DNA from: Escherichia phage 235Ecol030PP
Strand: one strand, 5' to 3'
Sequence record: PP355091.1
Length of the DNA stretch: 64,000 nt
Each line of letters begins with the position of its first letter. The first letter of the stretch is position 1. The notes under the pieces are model-generated. The model saw only the letters and a program-made list of their open reading frames with translations. It had not been told where the DNA came from and ran no database searches. Both the position numbers and the translations under genes were made by a program. Of this stretch, positions 12-36,492 are shown piece by piece.

Positions 12-2189
12 TTAGGCCGCAAGGGCCTTCATAGTTTTAGCGATTTGGGAAACTTCATCATCACTTAAAGAACTGCGATATCCGATGAAGTCGGAAACAA
101 TACGGAATTTCTTGGTAAACTCAGCAACCATTTTATCACTGTTTTTTGAAGCATTATTTGATAATACATCAAAAAGATTAGTTACTGTCCAGATGTCATG
201 ACCAATGGTATCTTTTCCACCATTAAAATATACACCGCGCAATGAACTAACTATATTAGCGAGTCGTGTATATTCTTCAGAAACTTCATCTGTACTGAAG
301 TACTTCATCATAAAATCTAGTTCAGGATACTTGATAATTTTATCAATATATCGTTGAGCTGAACTTGAATAACCTACATACTTATCATAATCTACATCAT
401 CAAAAGCATCTACATATAAATCACGCAAAGCTTCAAAAATACATTGGCACTGACCGAGTTCTTTTACCTTTTTCTGCAAAAGCGGACGAATAACATAAAA
501 TTCATTAATGCCAATAAGATTAGCCATACGAATCAAAATATTCATAGATGGATGACAAAGAGATGTAGTACCATCCATAGAGAAAATATCAGAACGATGC
601 ATATACGCTACATACCCAGTAATTTCATCTGCTTCTGATGTAAGCGTAAATAATTCCTCTTTTTCCCAGCGCCCGTCTTTAATTTCAAACTTAAATGCTG
701 TAGCAGCTTTAGGACGAGGAGCTTTACTTTTAACTACCTTTGGAATATAGCTTTTAACTAAAGCTTCAATTTCTGACAAATAATGAATGTTAACTTCATC
801 ACTTTCAAACATTGCCATAATATCAGGAAGCAAATCAATCTGCGATTCTACTTCTGGGTTAATAAACAGAAGACGCTCATTGTGATGAATATTCAAAGTG
901 TTATTAAATTCACTATCATCTAACGCATGTGCTAATCCACGGACAATATTAACACGATTTTTAATATTATCAATAACGATATTAATTTTTGTTGTATTAA
1001 TACCAAACAGACGATAACTTGATGCAACGGCTGAAGTTTCATGACTTTGCTTAATGCGCTTCAGTCGAGGGTCAAGATTTACTTCATACACAACCCCTGC
1101 ATTACATAACTTACTGTCAGGTTCAAACATGCTCTGCATCTTTTTATATGACAGATTTTTAGTCGTGAATTTGACTGAATTGCTAATCATATAATCTCGA
1201 GCAGAATACCCCATCTTCATCAATTCACGATATGTGTGACGAGGAGATGTAGATTCTTTAAATCGTTTTACATCTTCATTAAATGCTTTCTCACTAAGCT
1301 CTTTAACTCGTTCAATAATATTTTTACGAGTACGATCATCCAGTGAAAGAGCTTCACGTGATGGAGCAATATCAAGTGAACCCATTGGAAACTTAATGTA
1401 ATTCACTTCATTGCGAATGCTTAGCCAGTTACGGTCTCTAATAACACCATCGATAGGATAAACAATACCGCCGTAGATAGCATATAATCCGCCACGATCA
1501 GGCCAGTATCTTTCTGGATTTACACCATAATAATCATCAAAATCCGGAAAATAATCAATTTCGCGGTCAAGACCATTAATGATAGCCAAATCTTTGAACG
1601 GTCGCATGATATAAGAAACTTCATAAGCAAAGTTTCTAAAGTCTTTTTCTTCAACTGGAACTACGATTTCAATACCAGTTTTATCATCTGGACCCATTTC
1701 TTTTACGAATGTAGGTTTAATCTGTGGACCATCACCATCCATGTAAGCTACATAACCACGAATTTCACCTTTATGATACGAAGTAATACTAAACGTATCA
1801 GTATAACTAAACGGAGATTTAGAACCTAAACCAAATCCGCCAATGAAATCGTTAGATTCAGCCTTAGATGAACTGAAGTATGAATTATACAACCCAGGAG
1901 AATTATCATCACCCTGAATATCAAAATCACTCATACCCGGACCAAAATCTCGGCAAACAAATCGTGGATCTAAACGTCCAGGAACTTGTATGATAAATTT
2001 TTCAGGATTTCCATTGAGAGCATGGGCATCAATCATGTTGGTAATTAATTCACGGACTACTGCGCGAATCTTGTTTGTATACAAATCAGATGATAGAATT
2101 TTAAATACTTTAGGAGATGCTGTGATGCTAAATGCTTTTGATTTAGAACCATTACCAAGAATTGTTTCTTTTTCAGTGGTGATAATCAT
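12..2189 (-). CDS. rIIA: rIIA-like protein, 725 aa
   Basis: 725-aa ORF with GHKL/Bergerat-like N-terminal segment ([10 protein letters not shown]); size and position next to topoisomerase gene match T-even rIIA; recalled, not searched. Confidence 0.85.
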
Positions 2190-2458: not shown

Positions 2459-4278
2459 TACTGGCTCATCCATTCTTTACGAAGGTCAGCATTATCTCCC
2501 ATGAGCATTTCAAAAAGCTCTTTCCAGTTCTCAGGAAGTTTAACAACATCATATACTGGGTTTTGAATCATCTCACGATATTCAGATTTTTCCAAAGAGC
2601 CAAGTCCCTTAATATAACGGATGCTATGTTTAGGTAGAGTATCTTTGGCACTCTCATATTCAGCGACTGTATAAAACCATTCTTGTTTTTTACCGACCTG
2701 AGCGATGATTACAGGAGTTTTGACAAAGCGAATTCGTCCTTGCTCAAACAATTCTGGCCAATTACTAAAAAATCCGAGCAGAGAAGGATAAATGCTTCCT
2801 AGACCATCATGGTCAGCATCAGTCATAATAGCGATATTATGATAATTCAAGTTTTCAGCTTTTTCACCAAGAACTAGACCAGTTATTGCGCAAATATCAA
2901 ACAGTTCTTTGTTTTTAAGCATATCTGCATAAGACATACCCCAACTGTTGAGAACTTTACCACGTAATGGATAACCACCGTGAAGTTCTTTATCACGAAC
3001 ATCAATAAGATATCCGATAGCCGAATCACCCTCAGTCAAGAAAAGAGTAGTGTCAGCATCTTTACCACAAAGATTCGCTTTAATATGTTTATGAACCTTA
3101 GCTTTAGAAGCCTTTTTAGCCGCTTTAGTTTCTGCTGCTTTTTCTGCCGCCAATTTACGAGCTAATGCTGCTTCAATAATCGGCATTAAAATTGCTTCAT
3201 TATTTAGAATAGCACGTGAAATCTTTTTAGCATCAAGTTGAATATGACTACGGATTTCACCAAATGGAGAAGTCAAACGCTCTTTAGTTTGAGAATCAAA
3301 TCGCATGTTTTTCATATCACGAACAAACATAACGATAGTCAAACATTCTTTGACACGCGCTTTAGTTACATCAATTTTGAATTTACGTTTGATTTGTGGA
3401 ATAAGGTCTTCACAAATATCATCCATAACACAGTCAATGTGATGGCCACCATTCTTAGTGTGAATGTTATTCACATAAGTTAATTGACGAAAACCATCCG
3501 GTGAACGACCAACCGCAATAGAACAATTTTCTTGTTCTTGAACGATAGCATGTTCATCATACTGTCGTGCATATTTCTTAAAATTGCCCTGAACCTTTTT
3601 ACCATTAAAGGTAAATTGAATATCAGGATAAACTACTGCAAGTGTCTGGAGACGATCCAGTGTAATGTCAAGATAAACTTGGGACAGCTCATTAGTTTCA
3701 AATGACATAAAATCTGGAATGAAAGTAACACGAGTTCCTTTCCATTTTCCAGGAATAGTTTCCCAGGATTTATTTTCCATGCCATTTGAACAACGAACTA
3801 CAATATTATTTTGACCATCGCCAGTTTCACCAACAAACATCACAGAAAAAATGTTTGTCAAACTAGAACCAACACCATTCATACCGCCAGTGACGCGTTC
3901 TTTATCATCACCGAAGTTACCACCTGCTTTTGGAATAGTCCATGCAGCAACAGGACCAGGAATTTCTTCACCGGTAGGTGTTTTAACCATCGCCTGTGGA
4001 ATACCACGACCGTTATCTTCAACTGTTACTTGATTGTTTTTAATAGTAACATTAATTTTATTTGCGAATTTAAACTTAGTACGAATACCTTCATCTACTG
4101 AGTTATCGATAATTTCATCAATAAGCTTAACAAGACCAGGTACATACTGAACACTTTCCCATTTACCAAACAGAAAGCGCTCATGCATTTCATTAGCAGA
4201 AGAGCCAATGTACATGCCGCTACGCTTTTTGATATGTTCAATATCGCTCAGAATTTTAATTTCATTCTTAATCATCAC
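2458..4278 (-). CDS. 39: DNA topoisomerase II large subunit (GyrB-like ATPase + Toprim), unsplit 606 aa
   Basis: KRSGMYIGS ATPase N-terminus, GHKL motifs, Toprim LTEGDSA and DxD (TDADHDG); continuous ORF, no internal stop or bypass gap. Confidence 0.9.
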   Translation of the reverse strand: MMIKNEIKILSDIEHIKKRSGMYIGSSANEMHERFLFGKWESVQYVPGLVKLIDEIIDNSVDEGIRTKFKFANKINVTIKNNQVTVEDNGRGIPQAMVKTPTGEEIPGPVAAWTIPKAGGNFGDDKERVTGGMNGVGSSLTNIFSVMFVGETGDGQNNIVVRCSNGMENKSWETIPGKWKGTRVTFIPDFMSFETNELSQVYLDITLDRLQTLAVVYPDIQFTFNGKKVQGNFKKYARQYDEHAIVQEQENCSIAVGRSPDGFRQLTYVNNIHTKNGGHHIDCVMDDICEDLIPQIKRKFKIDVTKARVKECLTIVMFVRDMKNMRFDSQTKERLTSPFGEIRSHIQLDAKKISRAILNNEAILMPIIEAALARKLAAEKAAETKAAKKASKAKVHKHIKANLCGKDADTTLFLTEGDSAIGYLIDVRDKELHGGYPLRGKVLNSWGMSYADMLKNKELFDICAITGLVLGEKAENLNYHNIAIMTDADHDGLGSIYPSLLGFFSNWPELFEQGRIRFVKTPVIIAQVGKKQEWFYTVAEYESAKDTLPKHSIRYIKGLGSLEKSEYREMIQNPVYDVVKLPENWKELFEMLMGDNADLRKEWMSQ

Positions 4279-15471: not shown

Positions 15472-16122
15472 TTATTTTTCCTTTCTTATGAAGTTTTCTA
15501 TCATATGTCTATAGCAGATATTAGGATAACCTGCCTTGACAGCTATTTTATTAAATTTTGTGCGCTTAGGTCTATTATTATAAACCCACAACTCGTAAAG
15601 CGAATCATACGAATTCCATATCTCACCACGTCTTGGATTCGGTAAACCATATCGAGGTGAATTTTTACCGCTAAATCTTCCTTTTCGGGCTTTACTCATA
15701 TTAGCCTTGGCTTCATCGGATATAATTTTACCTTTATGAGCTAGACGCATTTTAGCCTTAGTTTCTTCAGGTGTTTTTAACCCCTTTATCCACGATGGTT
15801 TTCCAAACCTTGGATTATTTTCACCCGAGAAAAGAGCAGAGTTTTGGATTTTAAGAGTTTCTATTAATCTACTTGTTAATTTAACACCTTTATTATATCG
15901 CATTAAATTTACAGCATAATGCAATCCTCTCACATCTGGATATATTTTAGTTAATAATCTATGAGCTATAAAATGCTCACGCGCAGTTAACTCAACAAGA
16001 TTGTTTTTGCCATCTTCTCCTCCCATACATCTAGGAATTATATGATGGCGTTCTTTATATCCGCCAAGATTCCGGCATTTAGCTTTTGTAATTAAAGCCG
16101 AGTAAATTTTTTGGTAATTCAC
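15472..16122 (-). CDS. HNH (His-Me finger) homing endonuclease with NUMOD3-like repeats, 216 aa, GTG start
   Basis: motif ERHHIIP...N...EHFIAH; basic GK/KG repeats; C-terminal helix-turn-helix-like tail also seen in the other endonuclease ORFs in this window. Confidence 0.7.
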   Translation of the reverse strand: MNYQKIYSALITKAKCRNLGGYKERHHIIPRCMGGEDGKNNLVELTAREHFIAHRLLTKIYPDVRGLHYAVNLMRYNKGVKLTSRLIETLKIQNSALFSGENNPRFGKPSWIKGLKTPEETKAKMRLAHKGKIISDEAKANMSKARKGRFSGKNSPRYGLPNPRRGEIWNSYDSLYELWVYNNRPKRTKFNKIAVKAGYPNICYRHMIENFIRKEK

Positions 16123-22165: not shown

Positions 22166-22843
22166 TTATAGTAGTGTTCTTGTTCCACGAAATACTTCGA
22201 GCATTCTTGCATAAGATTTATTTGGAAATCCAGCTTCAATTGCTAATTTTTTAAGCTTAATAGCACCGGGTTTTCCAGAGTTTTCCCATATTTCTTTAAT
22301 CTTTTCAATGTTATCCCACATTATTGGGTCACGTTTATGTGATGGTTTATTTCTATTATAACCATATGGATTATTAAGCAAAGCTTCTTTTCGTTTTGCT
22401 TTAGTTTCTTCTGACTGCTTTTTGCCTAGCTGGGCTTTCCGGCAAACATCACTAAATCCAAGATGTTTTGGTTTTCCTTTTTGAGCTTTTGAAATTTTTT
22501 CTTTGGTTTCTGATGAAACTCTATAACCAATTCTTCTACCACCCTCTCCACCAATTTTTAAATTATAAGTCATAGGATCATTTACCACATCTATTGTTAC
22601 TAATTCTCTTTCAGCATCACGGGCTGATTTAAAATCTTTATAAAACCCAAGAATGCTTAAATTAAAATTTTTCTTACCATACTTTTTCTTGGCTTGTGCT
22701 AATAAAGTTCCTGACCCCATATAACCATCATTTAAATCATCGGTTGAATGAGTTCCATAGTAAATTTTATTATTAACTAAATTAGTTATAACATAAGTAT
22801 AATTATATTTCTTTTCTTTATGTCTTTTCATGTCATTAATCAA
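22166..22843 (-). CDS. GIY-YIG homing endonuclease (Seg-like), 225 aa
   Basis: N-terminal YVITN...KIYYGTH (GIY-YIG), basic NUMOD-like repeats, C-terminal DNA-binding tail. Confidence 0.75.
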   Translation of the reverse strand: MINDMKRHKEKKYNYTYVITNLVNNKIYYGTHSTDDLNDGYMGSGTLLAQAKKKYGKKNFNLSILGFYKDFKSARDAERELVTIDVVNDPMTYNLKIGGEGGRRIGYRVSSETKEKISKAQKGKPKHLGFSDVCRKAQLGKKQSEETKAKRKEALLNNPYGYNRNKPSHKRDPIMWDNIEKIKEIWENSGKPGAIKLKKLAIEAGFPNKSYARMLEVFRGTRTLL

Positions 22844-23684
22844 CTGCTATTGGATGAATAGCATTAAACTTATGAAATGCTTCTGATTTTTCTTTACGCG
22901 AAACGCACATGCGAAGAACCTTTAGTGGTTCATCTTCTTCACCCAACGATTTTCGTTTTTCAATATTAGAAGTTTTCCAACGAGCTTGCTCTGGAAACTC
23001 TCTATTGATTTGTTCAAGCGCTCTATTATGTTTAGAATTACTACGAATTGAACTACACCCACCGGGAGCGTGTGATTTTCCAGATACAACCAGATATTTG
23101 AACAAAGCCAAATGTGGATAACCTTGATTAATTAAATTGAGAAATGCATACATATCTTCACATAAATCAATTTTTCCATACCCAATTTGTTCTGTCGTAA
23201 GTTTTCCGAGGTCATACCATGTATTCGTGAATCCATATGAATTTTCACGATAATTACCCCAAGATGAAGTAATTTTAAAAATAGGTAGACGAGCATGACC
23301 GTGATAATACCCGCAATCCATGGCATCTTCAACATATTGAATCAATTCATAGAACTGTTCACGAGTTAATTGATTAATTTTATCTACGCGCCGTTTATCG
23401 TCTCTCTTTCGTATTGAACTCATACGAATAGTAGTATCATCATCAATCATCCATATTCGTTGACCTGCATACATATCAGTAATTGCTTTACGAGTACCGG
23501 AAATTCCATTAACATCATCAGGAATAGTTACAATTTTAGCTCTAGACCCATAGGCATCATAATAAGCTTTTTCTTCATGTTCACGCACTACAATATGGGG
23601 TTCATAATCAATCGGAAACATATCAAGGGCAGAAACTGCCCCTACACGTTGATAGCTCGGAATTACGAATTGAATCATTTCCAC
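22836..23684 (-). CDS. GT-A-fold glycosyltransferase, 282 aa (at the beta-gt locus)
   Basis: N-terminal VIPSYQR and DxD-like IWMIDDD; does not match my recollection of T4 beta-gt (351 aa). Confidence 0.5.
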   Translation of the reverse strand: MEMIQFVIPSYQRVGAVSALDMFPIDYEPHIVVREHEEKAYYDAYGSRAKIVTIPDDVNGISGTRKAITDMYAGQRIWMIDDDTTIRMSSIRKRDDKRRVDKINQLTREQFYELIQYVEDAMDCGYYHGHARLPIFKITSSWGNYRENSYGFTNTWYDLGKLTTEQIGYGKIDLCEDMYAFLNLINQGYPHLALFKYLVVSGKSHAPGGCSSIRSNSKHNRALEQINREFPEQARWKTSNIEKRKSLGEEDEPLKVLRMCVSRKEKSEAFHKFNAIHPIAVD

Positions 23685-24415
23685 TCACCTTTATAGTCTT
23701 TTTTCACAATATGAGTTTCGCCAGTATTCCACCAATGATCAACCAAGTAAAAATGACGAGAATATACATGAAGACTTCCAACATTCCATATAATAGAACC
23801 TACTTTATACTGACGAGTTGAATCGCCTGCATTCAAATCAGATACTAATTTATCTAATACGTATTTTTGCCATGCATAATCATTACGGAATCCGAAGACC
23901 ACGTCATTTGAGCGCATGCTTACTACTGCATTGACTTTCTTATCACGAATCAGGTACTGTACTGTATTCGTACACATGAAATCTGACATACCATCTTTAT
24001 TGTAGTCAAATTGCATGGATGGACGAGTATAAATCATGATACCACGTCGAGAATCAGGATTTTGACCAAGTTCAGCTAAACACATGTCATATTGAGCATA
24101 GTTATCTTCTGACCAGATAGCCCAACCATAATTCGAGTTAATTTCACCTTTAGAAGATGCTACTTGTTGCCAAATCTTTGGTGTTTCACCCGGAATATCT
24201 TTAACGAACAAGCTCTTAGATTTATACCATTCAAGTTCACGCTGAATGTATTCATCATTAAGAGCGCCAAAAATAAACGGTTCATCTGCTACAAATGATG
24301 CGCCAATAATTTCAATAGTTTTAACACCAGTTTTATCAATTACGAAATCTTTTTCCTTTAATGCAATTCCCAAATGAAGACGGATTTCTTCAACTGTCAA
24401 AGAGTCATTAATCAT
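23675..24415 (-). CDS. 42: dCMP hydroxymethylase (thymidylate synthase fold), 246 aa
   Basis: size 246 aa; position upstream of the glycosyltransferase. Confidence 0.8.
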   Translation of the reverse strand: MINDSLTVEEIRLHLGIALKEKDFVIDKTGVKTIEIIGASFVADEPFIFGALNDEYIQRELEWYKSKSLFVKDIPGETPKIWQQVASSKGEINSNYGWAIWSEDNYAQYDMCLAELGQNPDSRRGIMIYTRPSMQFDYNKDGMSDFMCTNTVQYLIRDKKVNAVVSMRSNDVVFGFRNDYAWQKYVLDKLVSDLNAGDSTRQYKVGSIIWNVGSLHVYSRHFYLVDHWWNTGETHIVKKDYKGEWK

Positions 24416-24568
24416 TTAAACCTCAATTGATACATTCATATTTAACTTGTAACAGTAATAAACCCCAACCTAAAATAATAGTTGGAATCATAAGAGGAAC
24501 CGTTACACTATAGTATATACTTATTATAACCATCAAGATTAAAAGCAATGCTGTTATAATTTTGCTTT

Positions 24569-24820
24569 TCATTCCTTCTCTCTGATGATAATTACCTGAT
24601 TTGGCTGCGCAGACTTTTTAGTTTCACCTGCAATTGACCAAATAAATGTAATAAACCAACCAATAATTGACCAGTTAAACAGTAAAGACGTGAAAAAGAT
24701 TCCTACTGTCGATTTTGACCCACGCATCAAGGCGATAAACCATGGAAGCATGTATATAATAATAGCCAACACGCCTGAAACTAAAACCATAAAAATTGAA
24801 CCTGCTACTAAAGTTTCCAT
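24569..24820 (-). CDS. imm: small membrane protein, 83 aa (Imm-like superinfection immunity)
   Basis: two hydrophobic helices; size and position match T4 imm. Confidence 0.7.
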   Translation of the reverse strand: METLVAGSIFMVLVSGVLAIIIYMLPWFIALMRGSKSTVGIFFTSLLFNWSIIGWFITFIWSIAGETKKSAQPNQVIIIREKE

Positions 24821-35274: not shown

Positions 35275-35292
35275 AAGGGCCGAAGCCCTTTA
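35275..35292 (-). other. UUCG-tetraloop hairpin overlapping the a-gt stop
   Basis: same AAAGGGCUUCGGCCCUUU element as at 30566. Confidence 0.6.
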
Positions 35293-36492
35293 TTTTGTAA
35301 TAATGTCAAACTGTTCTTTAAAGCAGAAGCTTGAATCTTGATGCTGATACAAAAATTCATATGCTTTTTCTCGCTCACGGTCATAAAGAGCTCGGTCAGA
35401 TGACAGTTCTTTAATACGCTCGAATGTTGATTCCATATCATTTTCATCAAACCAAATGATACCGCTATCATGTGAGGTCAAAGGAGTATTATCAACACGG
35501 AATTTTAAATTTTCGCCAGTAGATTTCCAAAATACCGGAATTGTTCCACATGCACCAAGCTCGAGATGAGTATATTCTAAAGAACGTTGTAAGTATTTCT
35601 GGTTAAGTTTACTCAACTGATATCCAAAGCCAGATTTACTCATTCGTTCAAGCATTTCACTATTAATATAACAATCTAGGATTTGTGCCGGTTGATTCGG
35701 CGTGAGATTCATTTTATCAATCTCACGATTACCATAATATTCATACGGAATACCTTTTTCCTTAATTGCAATAAAAGCAGGGGAACGTTCAAGACCTTCC
35801 ATTACAGTGGATTTACCAGCAGGTTTTAAGAATTTTTCGTGAAAATCAAACATCTGATAAAAACCTTTCCATGTAGTCGTACGACCAATCCAACGGTTGA
35901 TGTTCATGTTAATTTCAGAAACATCTTTCCAGTAGGTTGATCGAACCTTCGCAATATCCATAGGAGGCTGAAAGTTATATACTGCCGGCGCTTCTTCAAT
36001 ATCATCAAACAAAGAAACTGTTTCAGGATACCATTCTTTCATCAGAACTTTATTAAAATCGCCATTATCAGAATGACTAAAAATAACATCAGCTCGACGA
36101 ACAGTTTCTTCTAATCCCAAATTTCGACGCAAAGAAAGAACAGAATGATCATGCTGATAAACTACAACACGAATAGAAGGTTTAATATTATCTAAAAGTT
36201 TTTTATAGTTATTAATCGTGGCTTCTTGAACGGAAGTAGCAGGAACAGAATTAATAATTAGAATATCACAATCATTTACCAGCTTAAGTGCTTTATCGTA
36301 TTCTTTAGCTAAAATAACTGGAATTGAAAATGATTTGTGGTCATGAGAACTTGTACGAGTAAATGATTTATCTTTAGCATAAACCAAAGTTACTTCATGA
36401 CCATTTTTAATAAACCAATCACGTTGCTCAAGAGAAAATTTAGTTACACCGCAACCTTCAAGACCTCGAGCCAGAAAAATGCATACTTTCAT
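35290..36492 (-). CDS. a-gt: DNA alpha-glucosyltransferase, 400 aa
   Basis: size 400 aa and sequence recalled as T4 alpha-gt; putative middle promoter upstream. Confidence 0.8.
   Translation of the reverse strand: MKVCIFLARGLEGCGVTKFSLEQRDWFIKNGHEVTLVYAKDKSFTRTSSHDHKSFSIPVILAKEYDKALKLVNDCDILIINSVPATSVQEATINNYKKLLDNIKPSIRVVVYQHDHSVLSLRRNLGLEETVRRADVIFSHSDNGDFNKVLMKEWYPETVSLFDDIEEAPAVYNFQPPMDIAKVRSTYWKDVSEINMNINRWIGRTTTWKGFYQMFDFHEKFLKPAGKSTVMEGLERSPAFIAIKEKGIPYEYYGNREIDKMNLTPNQPAQILDCYINSEMLERMSKSGFGYQLSKLNQKYLQRSLEYTHLELGACGTIPVFWKSTGENLKFRVDNTPLTSHDSGIIWFDENDMESTFERIKELSSDRALYDREREKAYEFLYQHQDSSFCFKEQFDIITK

Follow-up and report, generated by a model that had tools for sequence, protein, structure and literature searches.

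Organization of the βα-gt locus

The window, by which we mean the whole 64-kb stretch of DNA analysed (Escherichia phage 235Ecol030PP, record PP355091.1), has a T4-like gene order: a 725-aa ORF at 12..2189, which is probably rIIA by its size and position only, followed by gp41, gp40, uvsX, segA, βα-gt, 42, imm and 43. The gene studied here, βα-gt (also called ggt or g-gt), lies immediately downstream of gene 42, in the slot that is occupied by β-gt in T4. The gene segA, which encodes a GIY-YIG homing endonuclease and is a neighbour outside the DNA-modification pathway, is the next gene downstream, separated from the stop codon of βα-gt by 4 nt. An earlier annotation made from the letters alone (the sequence-only reading) had placed the gene next to a GIY-YIG gene on one side and to dCMP hydroxymethylase on the other, and both neighbours are indeed present at these positions (Table 1).

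In the ORF listing of the window, the minus-strand ORF 22836..23684 is uninterrupted and comprises 282 codons counted from a GTG, a length that reflects the convention of the listing, which opens each frame at the earliest start codon following a stop. The sequence-only reading had reported a protein of this length. The frame is real and contains no internal stop codons, but the length does not hold: translation almost certainly begins at the ATG 23676..23678, so that the protein has 280 aa. This codon and the stop codon of gene 42 overlap (ATGA), an AGGTGA lies about 8 nt upstream of the ATG, the same ATG is annotated as the βα-gt start in the e11/2, T2, Geo and CP records, and the published length of T2 ba-gt is also 280 aa (PMC6024577, Table 1 therein).

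Table 1. Coordinates of the βα-gt gene, its motifs, its neighbours and the pathway genes in the window.
Feature	Position	Strand	Remarks
βα-gt (ggt/TAGT) CDS	22836..23678	-	280 aa + TAA stop (22836..22838); likely start ATG 23676..23678
Two extra in-frame codons, GTG GAA	23679..23684	-	Source of the mechanical 282-aa ORF; probably untranslated
I6-P7-S8-Y9-Q10-R11, N-terminal β1 motif	23646..23663	-	Typical of GT-A/GT2 nucleotide-sugar binding
D79-D80-D81, DXD-type metal/UDP-binding motif (predicted)	23436..23444	-	Letters GATGATGAT
E174-D175 'ED' motif, candidate catalytic base	23154..23159	-	Inferred by analogy with GT2 enzymes
Last 7 codons and stop of βα-gt, with 4-nt spacer before segA	22832..22858	-	27 nt also in T4
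segA, GIY-YIG homing endonuclease	22166..22831	-	99.5% identical to T4 SegA; Pfam GIY-YIG, NUMOD3
Gene 42, dCMP hydroxymethylase, makes hm-dCMP	23675..24415	-	Pfam Thymidylat_synt; synteny with T4, T6, T2
a-gt, α-glucosyltransferase	35290..36492	-	98.5% identity to T4 α-gt over 400 aa (tblastn); PF11440 AGT, E = 2e-258
Gene 56, dCTPase/dUTPase, 172 aa	14952..15470	-	Pfam dUTPase_2; size and position as T6 gp56

We did not find a dedicated βα-gt promoter, the number of promoter-like sites being 16 versus 16.9 expected in shuffled sequence. A 9-bp G+C-rich hairpin (23624..23644, minus strand, core GGGGCAG-UUU-CUGCCCU) spans codons 12-19 and is kept in T2 and T6, and the 96-nt hairpin region folds just slightly better than its shuffled versions (z = -2.0). 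The hairpin was rejected as a terminator or regulatory element because it lies inside the coding region, has a poor T-tail and folds only marginally; it may affect translation, or have no effect. On the opposite strand, βα-gt contains two ORFs (70 and 78 aa), which are unsupported and were treated as spurious.

Two other ORFs of the window were observed on the minus strand. The first (216 aa, 15472-16122) is located between gene 56 and gene 61, at a position where T6 has dam.1; it harbors a NUMOD3 motif, resembles SegA in its C-terminal half (32% similarity to that half of SegA) and probably encodes another Seg-type homing endonuclease. The second is a small hydrophobic ORF of 49 aa (24423-24572) that separates gene 42 from imm; e11/2, Geo and CP list it as a hypothetical or phage protein, while the T4 and T6 annotations lack it and leave a 150-nt gap there.

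Identity of the gene

When we compared the 280-aa protein with its relatives by direct alignment, we found 96% identity to T2 ggt over 280 aa and 98% identity to the e11/2 protein; the identity to T6 ggt is about 95% over the same length (95.4% by tblastn). The Geo protein is closer still, with 99.3% amino acid identity and only two differences (I23 and S60 are T and A in Geo). PHROG 842, 'beta-glucosyl-HMC-alpha-glucosyltransferase', matches residues 2-277 (E = 4.7e-87), and the sole Pfam match is PF20691 TAGT (TET-associated glycosyltransferase), where residues 6-209 align with profile positions 3-205 of 205 at 38.1 bits, the gathering threshold being 27.5 bits.

The gene is also widespread. 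Megablast retrieved it from 478 phage records; the nucleotide identity is ≥90% in 474, and most are Escherichia, Shigella and Yersinia Tequatrovirus phages. The 688 records matched by tblastn include a second tier at about 64% identity (Klebsiella, Enterobacter, Salmonella and Citrobacter phages) and Serratia phages at about 47%. In a large protein collection only 11 clusters matched, with the same Pfam domain wherever one was recorded.

Could the gene instead be a diverged or truncated homologue of the T4 β-glucosyltransferase, adding a single β-glucose onto hmC? This would be suggested only by the shared slot between gene 42 and segA/uvsX. The comparison with T4 β-gt, a longer enzyme of 351 aa, gave no significant similarity (best BLASTP E = 4.1), no homologue of it was found anywhere in the 64-kb window (best tblastn E = 1.5), and the structural neighbours of our model, described below, are GT-A. 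The probability of this explanation is virtually nil, and the sequence-only reading was right to find the protein unlike T4 β-gt. Judged by sequence comparison, the gene is an intact, ordinary β-glucosyl-HMC-α-glucosyltransferase gene of the T2/T6 type (Pfam TAGT). The same reading had guessed at a T2/T6 enzyme and proposed a homology search against it; the full-length identity of 95-96%, PHROG 842, PF20691 and the exclusively GT-A/GT2 structural neighbours all agree with this guess.

Motifs, fold and candidate active site

To the alignment of the protein with its family (alignment A1) 10 sequences contributed, down to a 28%-identical relative. All the invariant columns of A1 are present in βα-gt, including P7, S8, Y9, R11, D79-D81, D175, G206, G207 and R212, and E174 is nearly invariant. 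The sequence-only reading had pointed to IPSYQR and DDD as GT-A hallmarks; they correspond to residues 6-11 and 79-81.

A PDB sequence search returned chance matches only (E > 1), and thus no solved structure of the family can be found by sequence comparison. We built an AlphaFold2 model of the 280-aa protein from A1 (mean pLDDT 69.9, pTM 0.73), in which the prediction is good for the first 120 residues, while segments 126-141, 196-211 and 260-280 have a pLDDT below 50. The model is a single Rossmann-like α/β/α domain that is most similar to solved GT-A structures, and its structural neighbours are GT-A/GT2 only. Strand 2-6 lies at IPSYQR, the DDD follows the central strand 74-79 and a helix begins at residue 174. 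According to this model, βα-gt belongs to the GT-A fold, GT2-like glycosyltransferases, which reproduces a published conclusion drawn from AF3 modelling of the T6 enzyme: TAGT is GT-A and sister to GT2, while α-GT and β-GT are GT-B (PMC13216743).

The positions of the family-invariant residues in the model agree with a GT2-like active site, in which, to judge from other GT2 enzymes, E174/D175 would probably act as the catalytic base. The closest structures are mostly inverting enzymes, in line with the known chemistry, in which an α-linked UDP-glucose donor gives a β-1,6 product. From these analogies we infer the roles of the residues, and a mechanism that is probably inverting, from an α-linked donor to a β-linked product.

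Proposed modification of the phage DNA

The enzymes for making the acceptor of βα-gt, namely gp42, gp56 and α-gt, are all encoded in the window, so that α-glucosyl-hmC is expected to be formed. In the pathway that we propose, gp56 and gp42 would swap the dCTP pool for hydroxymethyl-dCTP, so that only hm-dCTP would be incorporated and 5-hmC would consequently be present in the phage DNA. The α-glucosyltransferase would then attach glucose in α linkage to most of the hmC, and βα-gt would join a further glucose to the 6-OH of the first one through a β-1,6 linkage, resulting in gentiobiosyl-hmC. The donor in this step would most likely be UDP-glucose, held by the IPSYQR strand and the predicted D79-D80-D81 metal site. 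The disaccharide would finally shield the DNA from enzymes acting on mono-α-glucosyl-hmC.

Published work already covers the βα-gt gene and its fold, as well as its distribution and its part in defence evasion. T2 and T6 DNAs carry β-1,6-glucosyl-α-glucosyl (gentiobiosyl) hmC, the product of ba-gt, and α-gt and ba-gt are both present in twelve of the sequenced RB phages (PMC6024577, which gives UniProt Q06717 and Q06718 as the T2/T6 enzyme entries). A T6 Δba-gt mutant has α-glucosyl-hmC only and shows heightened sensitivity to the Brig1 glycosylase, to which gentiobiosyl-hmC is resistant in vitro (PMC11078745), and DNA of T6 Δg-gt is a substrate of the glucose-removing BapA while wild-type T6 DNA is not (bioRxiv 10.64898/2026.02.25.707755). 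GmrSD still targets gentiobiosyl-hmC (PMC13216743). In the Durham phages, which have a TAGT at the β-gt position, HPLC/MS detected 5-hmdC and its α-glucosyl and α-gentiobiosyl derivatives, the β-glucosyl form being absent; the ratio of hmC to α-glucosyl to gentiobiosyl is about 1:2:2 in Geo, EL and BGP, while CP and others have about one-third hmC and two-thirds gentiobiosyl (PMC13390438). Since homology, LC-MS and defence-sensitivity work has been published for proteins that are 95-99% identical to the present one, the experiments put forward in the sequence-only reading have already been done on those.

We consider it highly probable that the gene is a functional βα-gt making gentiobiosyl-hmC in this phage. 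Our analysis contributes the orthology, the fold class, the conserved motifs and the presence of all upstream pathway genes, while in orthologues of 95-99% identity both the chemistry of the product and its dependence on the gene have been shown (PMC11078745, PMC13390438). The sequence-only reading had also considered another sugar, a possibility that gains no support: Geo and EL, whose proteins are nearly identical to this one (99.3% aa and 97.4% nt), carry α-5-gentiobiosylmethyl-dC by HPLC/MS (PMC13390438).

A broader version of this alternative is a TAGT of other specificity, using another donor sugar or acting directly on bare hmC, in which case the modification would not be gentiobiosyl-hmC. 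The family is indeed broad: most GT-encoding phages have an α-GT or a β-GT plus a TAGT, members pair with either, and solitary TAGT homologues occur in 288 of 753 phage genomes (PMC13216743), which argues that specificity varies across the family. I23 and S60 are also unique among the close relatives compared. However, these two positions are unconserved in the family, the protein is 95-99% identical to enzymes of phages with gentiobiosyl-hmC (PMC13390438; PMC11078745), and an α-gt 98.5% identical to that of T4 is present to make the acceptor. A changed specificity of βα-gt is very unlikely.

There is likewise only a slim chance that the orthologue is weak or inactive here, leaving the DNA essentially mono-α-glucosylated. 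The T2 enzyme, which is 96-98% identical, yields very little disaccharide, only about 5% of T2 hmC being gentiobiosylated (PMC6024577), and the S202/H203 allele is common to this phage and Geo, a partial gentiobiosylator with the ratio of about 1:2:2 (PMC13390438). In contrast, the ORF is intact, R11 and P251 are unchanged (T2 has R11H and P251S), and Geo, whose protein differs at two residues, has about 40% gentiobiosyl-hmC (PMC13390438). For a functional βα-gt, then, the residual doubt concerns the extent of modification, as the near-identical T2 enzyme shows that yields can differ greatly. As in Geo, from which the protein differs at only two residues, hmC, α-glucosyl and gentiobiosyl residues may occur at about 1:2:2 in this phage.

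The second glucose alters which host defences can attack the phage. With a DNA chemistry that is T2/T6-like and not T4-like, the phage is now easier to place when its host range in the face of type IV restriction and glycosylase defences is to be predicted. The gene is nevertheless ordinary for a Tequatrovirus phage, and in itself adds nothing new to what is already known in the field.

The segA junction and a possible history of the T4 locus

The βα-gt/segA junction (window 22166-22843) was found in only 8 of the 488 phage records matching either gene. In T2, T6, Geo, CP and e11/2, as in most βα-gt phages, βα-gt is followed directly by uvsX. T4, although it lacks βα-gt, bears TTCATCgAATAGCAGTTGATTAATGAC directly upstream of segA (at about 4237-4263 of NC_000866), and 25 of its 27 bases are identical to the end of βα-gt with the spacer (alignment A3; Table 1). 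In a megablast search with the junction as query, the match of the T4 records ends at query position 159, equivalent to window 22858 and 27 nt past the segA ATG. On the other side of the segment, the homology between T4 and the window is lost within the final ~6 codons of gene 42 and picks up again 27 nt ahead of segA. T4's few relatives having both α- and β-GT, a pair that is rare (6 of 753 genomes; PMC13216743), also carry the 27-nt copy directly upstream of segA. T2, which lacks segA, diverges from the window right after TAATG (alignment A3), which places the segA insertion point there.

The simplest reading of these data suggests an ancestral order of βα-gt then segA, with a later β-gt replacement in the T4 lineage. 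In this scenario, which we hold to be somewhat better than an even bet, the T4 ancestor had βα-gt then segA, an arrangement that the window may have kept, and β-gt took the place of a segment that starts in the final ~6 codons of gene 42 and stops close to the end of βα-gt. If true, the two-stereoisomer glucosylation of T4 would be the result of a recent cassette swap, with its breakpoints defined. The NAR 2026 paper makes no mention of segA or of a βα-gt remnant.

Comparison with known systems

The gene resembles T2 and T6 βα-gt in its 280-aa length, its 95-96% full-length identity, the ATGA overlap of its start with gene 42, its partner α-gt and its conserved motifs. It differs from them by 11 to 13 substitutions and by the presence of segA directly after it, which T2 and T6 lack there. 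Two differences concern the N-terminal motif: residue 11 is R here and H in T2, and codon 10 is not amber here, in contrast to the T6 record MH550421. In that record, positions 16028-16030 form a TAG amber at codon 10 (IPSY*R) and the CDS is annotated from Met20, with 261 aa, which would lose the conserved N-terminal strand; the amber could reflect either a mutation of the phage stock or an error in sequencing. In T2 (MH751506, 4286-5128), R11H and P251S affect invariant or nearly invariant positions of the family and might be related to the low gentiobiosylation of T2.

The Durham phages Geo, EL and BGP (OZ034685 and others) have the same locus, and their DNA has been characterised by LC-MS. 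Geo shares S202/H203 with the window but has no segA between βα-gt and uvsX. At codons 202-203 (23070-23075), CP, T2, T6 and e11/2 have A202/Q203, and among the Durham phages compared the S202/H203 allele tracks partial gentiobiosylation (Geo partial, CP high), which is a correlation only. S60 (codon at 23499-23501) and I23 are found in the window only, among the sequences compared.

The inverting GT2-family GT-A enzymes TarS, TarP, AvpGT, WrtF and BcsA are 6-16% identical to βα-gt. Unlike theirs, its acceptor is a sugar on duplex DNA, and for the last 70 residues of βα-gt the cellular GT2 enzymes offer no confident structural counterpart. T4 β-gt shares with it the slot between gene 42 and segA and an action on hmC DNA, and by analogy βα-gt is expected, like the T4 enzyme, to use UDP-glucose and to form a β-linkage. 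However, T4 β-gt is a GT-B enzyme of 351 aa, while βα-gt is GT-A with no sequence similarity to it, and their acceptors are different: the hydroxymethyl group of hmC for T4 β-gt, and the 6-OH of α-glucosyl-hmC for βα-gt.
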